From Actinophytocola sp. (lineage in GTDB: Bacteria; Actinomycetota; Actinomycetes; Mycobacteriales; Pseudonocardiaceae), in the NCBI GenBank assembly GCA_009377475.1, contig WHTY01000015.1, forward strand, positions 1,479 to 65,478: a DNA stretch of 64,000 bases. Direction: 5' to 3'. This document shows, piece by piece, positions 14,899 through 18,563 of this stretch. A program made the position numbers and the translations under genes. The notes under the pieces were generated by a model. The model saw only the letters and a list, made by a program, of their open reading frames with translations, was not told the DNA's origin and did not search any database. The stretch's first letter is position 1. Each line of letters begins with the position of its first letter.

Positions 14899-15159
14899 AT
14901 GGCCGGTGTTGAGGAGATCCGCGCGGGCATCGCGCTCGCCAACGAGAAGGCATCCGCCAGCATCGCCGCACTGCAACAGGCAGCCCAGTCGCTCGAGGAA
15001 GCCCAGCAGTCGCTCGCGGAGGCCACCTCGGGCTCCTCCCAGGACGAAGTGAACCAGGCGCACGGCCTGCTCGCCGAGGCGTTGCAGAGCATCACCGGGA
15101 CGCAGAGCACGATCCAGGCGTGCATGTCCTCGGCTGACGCCTACTCCGCGCGGCTGTAA
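14899..15159 (+). CDS. Small helix-loop-helix protein (Esx/WXG100-like size and shape, no WXG motif)
   Basis: 86 aa. GAGGAG lies 9 nt upstream of the ATG. The protein is Ala/Gln/Glu-rich and helical with a central SGSSQDE loop. Its C-terminal tail is DAYSARL. Confidence 0.7.
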   Translation: MAGVEEIRAGIALANEKASASIAALQQAAQSLEEAQQSLAEATSGSSQDEVNQAHGLLAEALQSITGTQSTIQACMSSADAYSARL

Positions 15160-15164
15160 CGCTG

Positions 15165-15419
15165 ATGTCGCTCGACGGCCTTCACCACGCCCTCGCCGCT
15201 GTCCACACCGGGCTCGGGGACGCCAGCGCCCAGCTCGCCAGCGCCACGCGGCTGCTGGCGCAGGCCCGTCGCGCGATGCGGGACGCTCAGCTCGCCCACG
15301 CGGGCGGCGAGCCGTGGCTGCCCACGCAACTCGACGCGGCGCTTGACGAGCTGGAGCACCAACGCGGCAGGCTCGCGGACGCCGGTGACCTGCTCGACGC
15401 CTACCAGGCGAGGTTGTGA
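15165..15419 (+). CDS. Small helix-loop-helix protein, paralogue of the preceding gene
   Basis: 84 aa. It starts 5 nt after the previous stop. It has a central GGEPWLP loop and the C-terminal tail DAYQARL. Confidence 0.65.
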   Translation: MSLDGLHHALAAVHTGLGDASAQLASATRLLAQARRAMRDAQLAHAGGEPWLPTQLDAALDELEHQRGRLADAGDLLDAYQARL

Positions 15420-15423
15420 TCGC

Positions 15424-18171
15424 GTGATCGGCAAGAAGGCACGGCAGCAGCGTGGCAGGGTGCTCGCCGCGCTGGACGCGCTGCGCACGCGAATCGGCCT
15501 CGCCATGGGCGCGGCGCGCAACGCGCGGGCCGAGGCCGAGTTCGAGCTGGCCACGCTGGAGCTGGAGCGGCAGATCGTCACCGAGGGCTGTGACCGCGCC
15601 CGCAGCGATCCGTCGCTCGGACCCCGGCCGGGCGATCCGGTGTCCACCGCGGTGTGGCAGCGGCTGGACCAGGTGCGCGCCGCGTTCGGGCAGGAGTGGG
15701 CCGATGGTCCGGCGCGCCTGCGGTCCCTGGTCGCCGCCAGCGCGCCGGGCGTGGCAGGCGACCCGCCGGGGCGCTGGCTCGGCAGAGTGGGCGCCGACCC
15801 GGGGCTCACCGCACCCGGGTTGTGGCGGATCGGCACCTGCACGGCCGACGGTTCGGACGCCTTCGACGTCGCGGTGCCGTTGCTGGAGGAGTCGCACCTG
15901 TCCATCACGTCCGCGTCTGGCACGCGGCACGCGGTGGACGCGCTGGTCGAGTCGTTGCTGATGCGGGTGCTGAGCACGTTCGAGCCGGGCGCGGTGCGGG
16001 TGCACCTGTGGGACGTCGGGCAGCTCACCGCCGTGCTGCCGAACTTCTACGCGCTGAGCAGGACGAGCGCGGTCACCGTGCACGACCCCACTCGGCTGGT
16101 CGACCTGCTGGACGAGTTCTCCGGCCACATCCGGCGCATCCACGCCGAGGCGTTGCAGGGCGGGCACCCGTCGTTGCGGGCGATGCGGGCAGCGGCGGGC
16201 GCCCGCATCGAGCCGTGGCGGATCGCGGTGCTCTACGGCAACGGCGAGGAGCTTGAGCCGGAGCGACGGCGTGACCTGCAACGGGTGGCCAGCGGCGCGT
16301 TGGACGCGGGGATCGCGCTGATCCTGGTGGACGTCCCGACCGCGCTCGGCGGCGCGGTGGAGGCTGTCCGGCTGCGCGACGAGCGCACGGCGTACTGCAG
16401 CATGACCGGCGCCGACCTCGTGGTGGACCTCGATCCGCCGCTGCCCGGTGCGCAGGTCAGCGCTGCCGCCGGGGCGATCGCGAAGGCGTTGGTGGCGAAG
16501 CAGGGTGGTCCGCGCGGCTTCAGCGACCTGGTGCCCGCCGAGCTGGGCCAGGATCGCTCCCTTGACGAACTGCGGACCCCGGTCGGGTTCGACGAGGGCG
16601 ATCCGATCGACGTCGTGATCGGGGACGCGACCCCGCACGCGCTCATCGGTGGGCCGAGCGGGTCCGGCAAGACGAACTTCCTGTACGCGCTGCTGGGCGG
16701 GCTCGCGGCGCGCTACTCGCCGGACGAGCTGGCGCTGTACCTGTTGGACTTCAAGGAAGGGGTGTCCTTCGCCGGCCTCGCGCCAGGGCGCAAGGACGAG
16801 AGCTGGCTGCCGCACGCCCGGCTGATCGGCGTCAACGTCAACACCGACCGGGAGTTCGGGCTCGCCCTGCTGCGGTTCCTCGCCGATGAGCTGCGCCGCC
16901 GGTCAGCCGCCGCGAAGGACCACGAGGTCACGACCCTGGCCGAGCTGCGCGCGGCTGATCCTGACGGGAGCTGGCCGCGCATCGTCGCGGTGATCGACGA
17001 GTTCCAGTACATGTTCGCCGGACGCGACTCCGTGACCGCGCTCGCGACGTCGTTGCTGGAGGACATCGCCCGCAGGGGACGCTCACAGGGCATCCACCTG
17101 GTGCTGGCCAGTCAGGACGTCGCGGGTATCGAGGCGTTCTGGGGCAAACCGGCGGTGTTCGAGCAATGCACGCTGCGGATCGCGATGCCGAAGGCGCGGC
17201 GGGTGCTCACCGAGGCGAACCAAGCCGCCGTGACCGCGCCCCGCTGGCACGCCGTGATCAACCACGACTCCGGTGTCCCGCACGGCAACCGGGTCGCGCA
17301 CGTCCCGGACGCGAGCTCGCCGGGGGTGTTCGCGCGGTTGCAGCGGTCGCTGTGGGAGCGCTACGCGAGTGGGCACGGCAGTCCCCGGCTGTTCGACGGC
17401 GCGGTCGCGCCGGTGCTCACCGAGAGCGCCGCCTACACCGAGTTGGCGGCGGGCCCTGCGTTGGTGGGGCAGCCACGCGCGTTGGTGGGGCAGGCGATCG
17501 CGGTGTCCGATGTGGCGTTCGGTGTGGCGCTGCCCCGTGCGCCAGGGCGTAACCTCGCGGTGCTCGGCGCGGCGCAACGCCCCGCATTGTCCATTCTGGA
17601 CTCCGCCGCGCGGTCGCTGGCGCGGCAGTTCCGGCAGGGCGATGTCGAGTTCGTCGCGTGTTGCCTTGTCGACTCCTGCGCGCCTGCCGTGACGCGGCTG
17701 GCGGAGCAGCTGCAGCGGGACGGGCACAAGGCGGAGATCGTGCCCGGCGACGAGCTGGGCGAGCGGCTGGCCGCAGTGCATGCCGGGATGGGCGAGGACG
17801 GCGCGCGCCGGGTGTTGTTGCTCTACGGCGTGGACGCCGCTCTCCCCGCGCTGGAACGCAAGGAGCCCGGCAAGCAAAGCGGGTTGGACGTGCTGCGCGC
17901 GGTGCTCAAACAGGGACCGGCGCACGGCGTGCACGTGTTCGGCTGGTGGCGGTCGGTGGCGCGGCTGAAGGACACGCTCGGTTTCGGCGGCACCGAGGAC
18001 ATCGGCGCGCTCGCGGCGCTCGACGTCCAGGGCAGCGACCTGGGGTCGTTCTGCGCGGGGCAGGTCGTGCACTGGTCGCCCCGGCCGGGTCGGGCGTTGT
18101 TCTTCGACCGCGCCACGCACAGCGCGCCGGAGGTCATGATCCCGTACGCGTTGCCGGAGGAGGAGTCGTGA
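15424..18171 (+). CDS. Soluble FtsK/SpoIIIE-family ATPase with three tandem P-loop-type domains (EccC/EssC-like core, no TM segment)
   Basis: The track ORF is trimmed to the in-frame GTG at 15424, 4 nt after the previous stop. The middle domain has Walker A GGPSGSGKT and Walker B VAVIDEFQ. The first domain (ITSASGTRH) and the third (LGAAQRP) have degenerate P-loops. The N-terminus is a charged coiled coil. Confidence 0.85.
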   Translation: MIGKKARQQRGRVLAALDALRTRIGLAMGAARNARAEAEFELATLELERQIVTEGCDRARSDPSLGPRPGDPVSTAVWQRLDQVRAAFGQEWADGPARLRSLVAASAPGVAGDPPGRWLGRVGADPGLTAPGLWRIGTCTADGSDAFDVAVPLLEESHLSITSASGTRHAVDALVESLLMRVLSTFEPGAVRVHLWDVGQLTAVLPNFYALSRTSAVTVHDPTRLVDLLDEFSGHIRRIHAEALQGGHPSLRAMRAAAGARIEPWRIAVLYGNGEELEPERRRDLQRVASGALDAGIALILVDVPTALGGAVEAVRLRDERTAYCSMTGADLVVDLDPPLPGAQVSAAAGAIAKALVAKQGGPRGFSDLVPAELGQDRSLDELRTPVGFDEGDPIDVVIGDATPHALIGGPSGSGKTNFLYALLGGLAARYSPDELALYLLDFKEGVSFAGLAPGRKDESWLPHARLIGVNVNTDREFGLALLRFLADELRRRSAAAKDHEVTTLAELRAADPDGSWPRIVAVIDEFQYMFAGRDSVTALATSLLEDIARRGRSQGIHLVLASQDVAGIEAFWGKPAVFEQCTLRIAMPKARRVLTEANQAAVTAPRWHAVINHDSGVPHGNRVAHVPDASSPGVFARLQRSLWERYASGHGSPRLFDGAVAPVLTESAAYTELAAGPALVGQPRALVGQAIAVSDVAFGVALPRAPGRNLAVLGAAQRPALSILDSAARSLARQFRQGDVEFVACCLVDSCAPAVTRLAEQLQRDGHKAEIVPGDELGERLAAVHAGMGEDGARRVLLLYGVDAALPALERKEPGKQSGLDVLRAVLKQGPAHGVHVFGWWRSVARLKDTLGFGGTEDIGALAALDVQGSDLGSFCAGQVVHWSPRPGRALFFDRATHSAPEVMIPYALPEEES

Positions 18172-18563
18172 TGGGGGAGTGGTCGGAGGCGTCGGGCGTG
18201 TCTTCCGACGTGTCGCCCGCGATGCGGTACAAGGAGATCGCGGGACTTGCGCGGAAGGCCACTGTGGACTTGCAGGCGTGGGAACGCTCGCGCATGGCCG
18301 AGCTGGAGCACGCGACGGCGGCGGCCCGCGAGGAGATCGAGGCCGCCACCGACCGCGAGCAACGGATGATGTCGCAGGCGCACCGATGGTGGCGGATGGC
18401 GCTGGACAATGTCGCGAAACTGTCGTGGGTGAGCGCCGGTCTCGAACCGGAACCGATCGAGTCCGCCCGCGCCTCGCAGCGCAGCCGCTACACGGAGGAC
18501 GTCCGCGCCGGCTACCAGGAACTGACCCAAGCGGTGCTGGACCTCAGCTGGCGCGCCCGCTGA
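18171..18563 (+). CDS. Hypothetical 130-aa helical, Trp-rich protein translationally coupled to the FtsK-like ATPase
   Basis: The ATG at 18171 overlaps the ATPase TGA by 1 nt, and GGAGGAGGAG lies just upstream. The gene has high GC3. I recognise no family. Confidence 0.65.
   Translation: MGEWSEASGVSSDVSPAMRYKEIAGLARKATVDLQAWERSRMAELEHATAAAREEIEAATDREQRMMSQAHRWWRMALDNVAKLSWVSAGLEPEPIESARASQRSRYTEDVRAGYQELTQAVLDLSWRAR

Follow-up and report, generated by a model that had tools for sequence, protein, structure and literature searches.

What does an operon do when it joins an EccC-like motor to a pair of Esx-like proteins and carries neither an anchor nor a channel? The question is raised by four genes, here called g1 to g4, in a stretch of 64,000 nucleotides (nt) of Actinophytocola sp. 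DNA (contig WHTY01000015.1; the whole stretch is referred to as the window). All four lie on the plus strand: g1 (14899-15159, ATG to TAA, 86 amino acids, aa), g2 (15165-15419, ATG to TGA, 84 aa), g3 (15424-18171, GTG to TGA, 915 aa) and g4 (18171-18563, ATG to TGA, 130 aa). Gaps of 5 nt and 4 nt separate the first three genes, and g4 is translationally coupled to g3, with which it has one nucleotide in common (TGATG). A first, sequence-only reading of the window had described this tight co-directional packing, and the coordinates came out exactly as it gave them. The GC content at third codon positions (GC3) of g1-g4 is 0.85-0.91, as expected for coding sequence in DNA of about 70% GC. The same reading had asked whether the cassette is conserved as a unit; in fact, the same four-gene order is kept in about 80 species of Pseudonocardiaceae, with flanks that differ between genera. 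The cassette is a real operon and a conserved unit within one actinobacterial family.

The cassette had also been taken to consist of parts that resemble those of type VII secretion systems (T7SS), and this view holds. The small paralogous pair has a recurrent, sub-threshold similarity to WXG100 proteins and ESAT-6, and the ATPase is closest to EccC both by structure and by profile. Profile and structure comparisons show that g3 is an EccC-type protein with three P-loop domains; the middle one alone is predicted to be able to hydrolyse ATP.

The motor and its small partners

EccC combines two N-terminal transmembrane (TM) helices and a DUF domain with three nucleotide-binding FtsK-like domains. 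FtsK and SpoIIIE have a membrane domain at the N-terminus, a motor made of alpha and beta domains, and a gamma winged-helix domain that recognises DNA. Which of these does g3 resemble? Its AlphaFold model, built from a 32-sequence alignment (predicted local distance difference test, pLDDT, 88.3; predicted template modelling score, pTM, 0.73), begins with a long helical hairpin at the N-terminus, after which come three alpha/beta domains; a prediction from the single sequence reached a pLDDT of 40 and was unusable. In a Foldseek search with this model the top match was the three-domain cytoplasmic part of Thermomonospora curvata EccC (4nh0, E 1.5e-32, ~950 columns). EccC D2-D3 and EssC ranked next and the FtsK motor and the TcpA coupling protein far lower, EccC and EssC being ahead of FtsK by about 20 orders of magnitude in E-value. 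Comparison by hhalign with segments of an Amycolatopsis-type EccC points the same way: the middle domain (D2) is closest to EccC D1 (99.9%, E 4.7e-33), the first domain (D1') matches EccC ATPase domains 1 and 2 at 95-96%, and the third (D3') matches EccC D2 and D3 at 95-96%. The curated EccC models score g3 at 85.3 bits (TIGR03924, EccCa; cut-off 509) and 49 bits (TIGR03925; cut-off 347).

The three tandem FtsK/SpoIIIE-type domains read from the sequence are thus found as three alpha/beta domains in the model. The EccC/EssC layout that was read along with them does not stand as such, because g3 has one catalytically intact domain and not three nucleotide-binding ones. Pfam and NCBIfam recognise a single FtsK_SpoIIIE domain, the middle one (aa 385-566, E 2e-20), and Pfam matches this core only, with no FtsK_alpha or FtsK_gamma match. 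D2 (aa 363-645, 16510-17358) appears from its motifs to be the sole intact copy. It holds the one Walker A of the protein (GPSGSGKT, aa 410-417, nt 16651-16674), the one Walker B (AVIDE, aa 521-526) and the single occurrence of the motif RRGRSQGIHLVLASQ (aa 550-564), and G410, G413, G415, K416, D525, E526, R550, R553 and Q564 are invariant across the family. D1' (aa 125-362, 15796-16509) lacks a Walker A, and D3' (aa 668-912, 17425-18159), which conserves a G-W-W motif, carries GAAQRPALS in its place. When the three segments are compared profile to profile, D3' matches D2 at 96.8% over 201 columns, an alignment that superposes the Walker A and B positions and puts GAAQRPALS on the P-loop; D1' matches D3' at 95.8% and D2 at 85%. 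D1' and D3' are therefore degenerate copies.

Does g3 hide a membrane anchor? TM prediction, which the sequence-only reading had called for, found no TM helix in g3, as that reading had expected. The coiled coil that it placed at the N-terminus is likewise borne out: aa 1-110 (15424-15753) form a charged helical hairpin (model helices 3-54 and 72-106) at the position occupied by the TM helices in EccC and in planctomycete homologues. This hairpin has no g1-like similarity. The most hydrophobic 19-residue segment of the protein (aa 297-315, beginning IALILVDVPTALGG; Kyte-Doolittle value 1.81) was considered as a TM helix and rejected: Asp and Pro are among its residues, and the model makes it a beta-strand of D1'. 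An anchor concealed by a mis-called start is excluded as well, since only 27 non-hydrophobic codons, overlapping g2, are available upstream. The g3 protein deposited from an Actinophytocola sp. metagenome-assembled genome (P0001) has 914 aa, one fewer than are read from the GTG at 15424 (915 aa); its deposited start therefore lies one codon away, which is irrelevant to the lack of an anchor.

g1 and g2 are paralogues, and a jackhmmer search from either retrieves the other. g1 is under strong purifying selection (mean pairwise identity 53%; 63-84% between genera), and g2 diverges faster (32%). The C-terminal tail of g1 reads A-D-A-Y-S-A-R-L, with a family consensus of A-[ED]-x-Y-x-x-R-L in which Y, R and L are found in 63, 76 and 77 of 81 sequences, respectively; g2 ends in D-A-Y-Q-A-R-L (consensus [YF]-x-x-R-L). 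It had been remarked that neither protein has a W-x-G turn. This is literally true, but the T-x-G-S turn of g1 aligns weakly and repeatedly on W-x-G. That turn is T-S-G-S with an invariant G45 (family pattern [TAIVL]-x-G-[ST]), and the turn Gly stays invariant in a gapless 86-column alignment that includes distant g1 homologues. The turn of g2, P-W-L-P, contains a Trp.

How close are these proteins to the WXG100 family? Searched against the PDB with the g1-family profile, the best natural match was ESAT-6 (3fav_B, E 0.009), with residues 9-81 on 8-80 in register; Staphylococcus aureus EsxA followed at E 0.16, and these natural matches sit among designed coiled coils. An hhalign comparison of the g1 family with four WXG100 sequences placed T-S-G on the W-G-G of ESAT-6 with a probability of 48%. 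Sixteen g1-family members run against Pfam touched 122 families below threshold, among which WXG100 and DUF6244 were the most recurrent (5 of the 16 each); the best WXG100 E-value, 0.0019, was also below threshold. g1 and g2 themselves matched neither WXG100 (PF06013) nor DUF6244 in Pfam at E up to 1. Two features of the WXG100 type are present at the level of gene organisation, namely the adjacent paralogous gene pair and the linkage to an FtsK-like ATPase. Judged by sequence, g1 and g2 are WXG100-like proteins of presumed helical-hairpin form, yet they fail every curated membership threshold. Database homologues of g1 have no Pfam domain, and their automatic names are inconsistent (e.g. P0401, P0410, P0421, P0425). 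Most are listed as 'hypothetical protein', several UniRef names read 'Methyl-accepting chemotaxis protein', probably a coiled-coil artefact, and one reads 'Type VII secretion system (Wss) protein'.

g4 is soluble and as rich in Trp as had been noticed (6 Trp in 130 aa). Its mean identity is 35% across 85 loci, it matches nothing in Pfam, NCBIfam or PADLOC, and it has no TM segment and no similarity to a g1-like domain. In the operon it occupies the position of the membrane-anchored partner in related systems. The g4 hidden Markov model (HMM) weakly matches the N-terminal parts of proteins with 3-4 TM helices encoded 3' of the ATPase in two related loci, L171 and L172 (E 8e-5 and 4e-4 against a database of six sequences), and the likeness of g4 to the partner protein of locus L087 is at the level of a motif, a short R..W..RW..PEPD common to both. 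The tail-anchored partners of Hsp70-linked systems (L085, L089; see below) were also considered as g4 homologues, and no signal was obtained. None of the four products has a TM helix, and the cassette carries no conduit of its own.

Conservation and relatives of the cassette

Orthologues of g3 (900-920 aa, 50-74% identity) occur throughout the Pseudonocardiaceae, in genera that include Amycolatopsis, Saccharomonospora, Prauserella, Saccharopolyspora, Actinokineospora, Kutzneria, Lentzea, Saccharothrix, Actinopolyspora and Pseudonocardia. Among database proteins, g3 is 100% identical to that of the Actinophytocola sp. metagenome-assembled genome and 91% identical to one from Haloechinothrix salitolerans. 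Across the compared loci only the four genes are universal: two small open reading frames (ORFs) precede the ATPase in 81 loci, g1 is found in 81 of 81 paired loci and a g4 homologue is present in 85. ATPase orthologues were recovered from one locus per species, the cassette is near-universal and its flanks are metabolic genes; phage records matched the cassette at the P-loop level only. The cassette appears to be vertically inherited.

Could the cassette belong to an ESX locus? A canonical one exists in Amycolatopsis, with a mycosin, a 1334-aa EccC that has TM helices, EccB and EccD. Used as tblastn queries, the Amycolatopsis EccB, EccD and mycosin fragment gave no match in the 64-kb window, and the sole match of the Amycolatopsis ESX proteins there was the P-loop of g3. 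Within the sensitivity of tblastn, the earlier statement that the window has no ESX membrane genes is thus upheld. EccB and EccD also gave no match in 1.24 Mb of 5-8-kb flanks from 88 actinobacterial loci; at these loci the module never adjoins eccB, eccD or mycP. The cassette thus does not belong to an ESX locus and does not stand in for one.

The wider ATPase family is large, with at least 1240 clusters at 50% identity (E <1e-30) aligned over about aa 100-910 of g3. In a profile search, proteins of Planctomycetes (Thermoguttaceae, Phycisphaerales, Pirellulaceae) and Verrucomicrobiales came at E 1e-109 to 1e-140 and canonical EccC behind them, only at E 1e-32. These planctomycete and verrucomicrobial homologues have ~1300 aa, with two TM helices predicted around aa 205-280, and one Walker A only, GKTGSGKS (P0283-P0343, e.g. 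P0288, P0297, P0331, P0339). The nearest outgroups (Polymorphospora, Micromonospora and one further actinobacterium; ATPase identity 37-43%) encode, directly 3' of the ATPase, a protein of 214-283 aa with an N-terminal coiled coil and 3-4 TM helices. The absence of an anchor in Pseudonocardiaceae is therefore a derived loss and not a primitive state. From these gene orders and predicted helices we conclude that the ancestral system was probably membrane-associated and that the Pseudonocardiaceae cassette would have lost its anchor and kept only the soluble g4. With TM-bearing, partner-anchored and TM-less members, one family thus contains ATPases that are anchored by themselves, anchored via a separate partner, or not anchored at all.

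A second, Hsp70-linked branch (ATPase identity 26-38%) has a fixed gene order: Hsp70, DnaJ/TPR (2 TM helices), GrpE and ATPase, then a coiled-coil protein with a C-terminal membrane anchor and an 86-aa g1 homologue that ends in SYASSL or DYAARL. Next come proteins in which the first ~90 residues form a g1-like hairpin with an L-A-G turn, followed by a Gly-rich linker and a variable C-terminal domain: Gln_amidase (a papain-fold toxin, glutamine deamidase), a calpain-like peptidase (Peptidase_C2), or none that is recognised. Among ten of the larger hairpin proteins that were scanned, five had one of these two domains and five had none that could be recognised. Wherever toxin genes were examined closely, small immunity-like ORFs come after them. 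We surveyed 80 metagenomic loci of ATPase relatives (GC 0.35-0.72). A homologous 84-92-aa protein lies within 1.5 kb 3' of the ATPase in 54 of them, a DnaJ/TPR gene is present in 52 and Hsp70 in 13, and 19 encode homologues of the hairpin-toxin query that have 200 aa or more. The complete set, from Hsp70, TPR and GrpE through ATPase, tail-anchored protein and 86-aa protein to toxin, is also found on a Rhodococcus pseudokoreensis plasmid. By its gene content this operon looks like a chaperone-coupled, type VII-like toxin delivery system, of which we found no description in the literature searched. The chaperone operon recurs at L085 2500-16600, L089 2000-13000, L090-L169 and L173 2800-11500. 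From these comparisons we conclude that the hairpin is probably a trafficking or recognition module for the g3 ATPase family.

Other relatives keep different company. On plasmid pSBC2-5 of Caballeronia sp. SBC2 (L174 2800-15461) a TM-less, 927-aa ATPase relative lies in one co-directional block in the order VWA, annotated WXG100, three hypotheticals, ATPase, DUF1887 CARF, VWA, PP2C, Ser/Thr kinase and AAA. The WXG100 gene, annotated as such by RefSeq, is thus four genes 5' of the ATPase and in the same co-directional run; the neighbourhood as a whole is more like intracellular conflict or signalling systems than a secretion locus. At L088 (4800-16300) a relative with 42% identity has a g4-like gene 3' and, 5', a 448-aa protein with a C-terminal g1-like domain. 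Besides many small membrane ORFs, this mobile-element-like cluster contains an HNH endonuclease and another FtsK-like gene, one with TM segments (682 aa, TraB-like). In Micromonospora sp. KC723 (L172 8345-8608) an 87-aa DUF6244 protein is encoded two genes 3' of the ATPase relative and matches the g1-family HMM; DUF6244 is therefore probably the T7SS-like hairpin partner of the g3 ATPase family in Micromonosporaceae.

The immediate surroundings of the cassette are of another kind. The intergenic region 5' of g1 (14795-14898, plus strand with respect to the cassette and divergent from a minus-strand epimerase gene) is the sole non-coding gap of more than 5 nt before the four genes and is the presumed promoter and 5' untranslated region. 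A promoter and terminator scan of the locus gave nothing over shuffled background and no sigma-70-like match, so the operon promoter is inferred and not shown. The upstream neighbours are two NAD-dependent epimerases, a GT2 glycosyltransferase and a GtrA-like protein. Together they make up a small glycosylation cluster (11040-14794) of two NAD-dependent sugar epimerases/dehydratases and the GT2 glycosyltransferase, mostly on the minus strand, with the GtrA-like membrane protein on the plus strand; its adjacency to the cassette is not kept in other genera. Downstream lie a DUF985 cupin, a cold-shock protein, a PfkB kinase and a DAO oxidoreductase. A minus-strand ORF at 18624-18929 (101 codons, convergent with g4), which contains one hydrophobic helix, VIISSAIVAVIAAFVLGI, is probably not a gene, because its GC3 is low (0.72) and none of 88 related loci has an equivalent. 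The long ORFs opposite the cassette (e.g. 14872-16815) are artefacts of the kind usual at high GC.

Are there conserved functional neighbours in other genera? Families that recur in 14-29 of 83 loci (hydrolase, alcohol dehydrogenase, FAD oxidase, GNAT, TetR, Exo_endo_phos, PP2C and kinase) were considered for this and rejected: they are metabolic or regulatory and reflect local synteny only. In Amycolatopsis-type loci (L001 3800-7200 and 13-17 others) a co-directional PP2C phosphatase gene lies immediately 5' of the cassette, and the other strand carries a Ser/Thr kinase and an N6-adenine methylase; these genes are shared by 14-18 of 83 loci. The PP2C and kinase genes near these cassettes may be a matter of local synteny only, and a PP2C and a kinase also flank the Caballeronia relative.

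Known systems and earlier description

Has such a system been described before? The sequence-only reading had recognised no described system in the cassette, and a claim of complete novelty needs correcting. Zhang et al. 2012 (Biol Direct 7:18, PMC3482391) mention in footnote 6 of their Table 1 a 'mobile version of T7SS' with a YueA-like ATPase of three HerA/FtsK domains, only the middle one active, and solo WXG proteins. With the layout noted there, the architecture of the cassette is therefore not wholly undescribed. The two agree in the three-domain ATPase with an intact middle domain, in its pairing with small WXG-like proteins, and in the distribution of g3 homologues, which we find in Planctomycetes, Verrucomicrobia, Betaproteobacteria and on plasmids (PMC3482391 gives no accession numbers). 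The solo-WXG association itself is found in 81 Pseudonocardiaceae loci, where 84-92-aa homologues adjoin the ATPase; these are WXG-like and not threshold-passing WXG100 proteins. The published account, however, is one sentence on Gram-negative lineages only and without anatomy, whereas the present cassette is actinobacterial and chromosomal. Relative to that variant, g3 has lost the two TM helices seen in the 1300-aa planctomycete forms, and g1 and g2 have lost the Trp of W-x-G. Nor does PMC3482391 mention the Y-x-x-R-L tail, g4 or the Hsp70/DnaJ/GrpE linkage of relatives. In the literature searched, the g3 family is mentioned in that one sentence only. In the full texts searched, with subscription journals largely outside them, there was no description of an anchor-less actinobacterial cassette, the Y-x-x-R-L tail, g4, the Hsp70/DnaJ/GrpE linkage or DUF6244, which no paper there mentions.

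Among characterised systems, ESX (type VIIa) is the closest. The fold and multi-domain arrangement of g3 come nearest to the cytoplasmic part of EccC, two adjacent paralogous genes of ~90 aa precede the ATPase, and their products have a conserved C-terminal tail, as in EsxB. The cassette differs from ESX in that g3 has no TM helices and two of its three domains have no nucleotide-binding motifs, in that no EccB, EccD, EccE or MycP is found near g3 (the tblastn queries being EccB, EccD and the MycP fragment), and in that the W-x-G and Y-x-x-x-D/E motifs are missing from g1 and g2. Type VIIb systems, with EssC, LXG toxins and small helical partner proteins, have their counterpart in the relatives, which fuse the hairpin with its L-A-G turn N-terminally to variable toxin domains and accompany the toxins with stand-alone hairpin proteins and immunity-like ORFs. 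Unlike type VIIb systems, however, these loci have no FHA domains and no EsaA, EssA or EssB, the relatives use Hsp70, DnaJ-TPR and GrpE and not type VIIb parts, and the window cassette itself has no toxin. With FtsK, SpoIIIE and TraB translocases g3 shares the P-loop motor fold, Walker A and B and an RxGR..GIH..Q motif, but it has no gamma, alpha or membrane domain, it has three domains of which two are dead copies, and the structure search places these translocases well behind EccC and EssC. As to DUF6244 (PF19757), an uncharacterised family of small actinobacterial proteins, 5 of 16 g1-family members match it below threshold, whereas g1 and g2 themselves are unmatched at E up to 1.

Possible roles and what they would mean

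To explain these observations, we propose that the cassette is an anchor-less, reduced Pseudonocardiaceae branch of a widespread type VII-like system, a recognition and motor unit that serves a membrane complex encoded elsewhere. This is the reading that we favour, and we rate its chances as even. In such a system, g1 and g2 would form a heterodimeric four-helix bundle like that of ESAT-6 and CFP-10, and their free C-termini, Y-x-x-R-L-COOH, would act as the recognition signal. The tails may be received by one of the degenerate domains of g3, D3' being the likeliest; the analogy is with the EsxB signal bound to EccC D3 (4n1a, a structure that is itself among the g3 structure-search matches). 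Docking would promote the assembly of a g3 ring, with D2 providing the ATP-driven force for pulling or remodelling. g4 could be what is left of the cytoplasmic coiled-coil portion of the relatives' membrane partner and might bind the N-terminal hairpin of g3. The g3 complex would then hand the g1-g2 dimer, possibly with unlinked cargo, to the membrane complex. The proposal draws support from the conservation of the cassette among variable flanks, the paralogy and tails of g1 and g2, the architecture of g3, the WXG100-like signal, the metagenomic relatives with their toxin fusions, the membrane partners of relatives, the annotated WXG100 gene near the Caballeronia relative, the published precedent and the canonical ESX locus in the same family (in Amycolatopsis). 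The hairpin family of g1 and g2 travels with the g3 ATPase family across phyla.

Several observations weigh against it. No membrane component is found in the cassette or within 6 kb around it at 88 loci, and export would therefore need an unlinked partner. The WXG100 membership of g1 and g2 stays below every curated threshold, and their alignments lack the canonical Y-x-x-x-D/E export motif. The Pseudonocardiaceae cassette comes without toxin or immunity genes. Finally, the strong purifying selection on g1 fits intracellular housekeeping as well as it fits a core secretion substrate.

Is anything exported at all? After the loss of its partner, the cassette could have become a purely cytoplasmic module, in which g3 is an ATP-driven remodeller of, or switch on, g1-g2, serving development, stress signalling, or the assembly and disassembly of helical-bundle complexes. 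We regard this as possible without favouring it. It would account for the solubility of all four products, for a g1 that is highly conserved in an apparently vertical cassette with neither toxins nor immunity genes, and for the contrast between the nearest outgroups, with their TM partner, and the Pseudonocardiaceae, with only a soluble g4, which reads as a deliberate loss. The TM-less Caballeronia relative fits it too, with CARF, VWA, PP2C and kinase neighbours of the sort typical for intracellular signalling or conflict systems. However, the informative relatives all point to export, through their toxin fusions, their membrane anchors and their EccC-like structure; the conserved free C-terminal tails look like a targeting signal, and no cytoplasmic client or output domain is encoded.

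A related and rather doubtful possibility is that the g3 and 86-aa hairpin families form a distinct, multi-phylum secretion or conflict apparatus, of which the Pseudonocardiaceae cassette would be a domesticated, non-secreting form with a new intracellular role. If this were true, the full form of the apparatus would be the Hsp70, DnaJ-TPR and GrpE set with a tail-anchored protein and an EccC-like motor that has a single active domain, and it would deliver polymorphic toxins.

The sequence-only reading had also offered defence and nucleic-acid translocation as alternatives, and the findings do not support either. An anti-phage or conflict system, in which an FtsK-like ATPase senses or pumps invading DNA under the control of the small proteins, is improbable. 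PADLOC models do match g3 (SspH, E 5.6e-17; mad8, E 1.7e-15), but the models are 1766 aa and 314 aa long and the matches cover the generic P-loop only (aa 383-598); the other components of those systems are absent, and g1, g2 and g4 have no meaningful match. The PP2C, kinase and N6-methylase genes nearby in Amycolatopsis and the CARF and VWA neighbourhood of the Caballeronia relative would suit such a role. However, the Amycolatopsis neighbours recur through local synteny in no more than 14-18 of 83 loci, and the near-universal cassette sits among metabolic genes and not in defence islands. Most improbable is a role as a TraB- or FtsK-like DNA translocase that serves conjugation or chromosome handling in actinomycetes: g3 does belong to the FtsK/HerA superfamily, with the FtsK motor and TcpA among its lower-ranked structural matches, and the 42%-identity relative lies in a mobile-element-like cluster with TM-bearing FtsK-like and HNH genes, but EccC and EssC outrank FtsK by the margin in Foldseek E-value given above, g3 has no FtsK gamma or alpha match, no membrane anchor and two inactive domains out of three, the association with WXG-like proteins is conserved, and the Pseudonocardiaceae loci have no relaxase, replication or integrase genes.

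What, then, does the cassette mean for the biology of its carriers? Current models tie type VII substrate recognition to membrane-embedded EccC or EssC. A whole family of bacteria that keeps an EccC-like motor with an Esx-like pair, and no anchor or channel genes, would allow recognition and motor to be separated from translocation for study. The carriers include Amycolatopsis, Saccharopolyspora and Saccharomonospora, genera that are genetically tractable and industrially important, and the Y-x-x-R-L-COOH tail is a simple candidate for a targeting signal. The large g3 family is almost unstudied, and its other branches carry chaperones, membrane partners and polymorphic toxins. The cassette is T7SS-like in kind, an uncharacterised branch of a barely described family.

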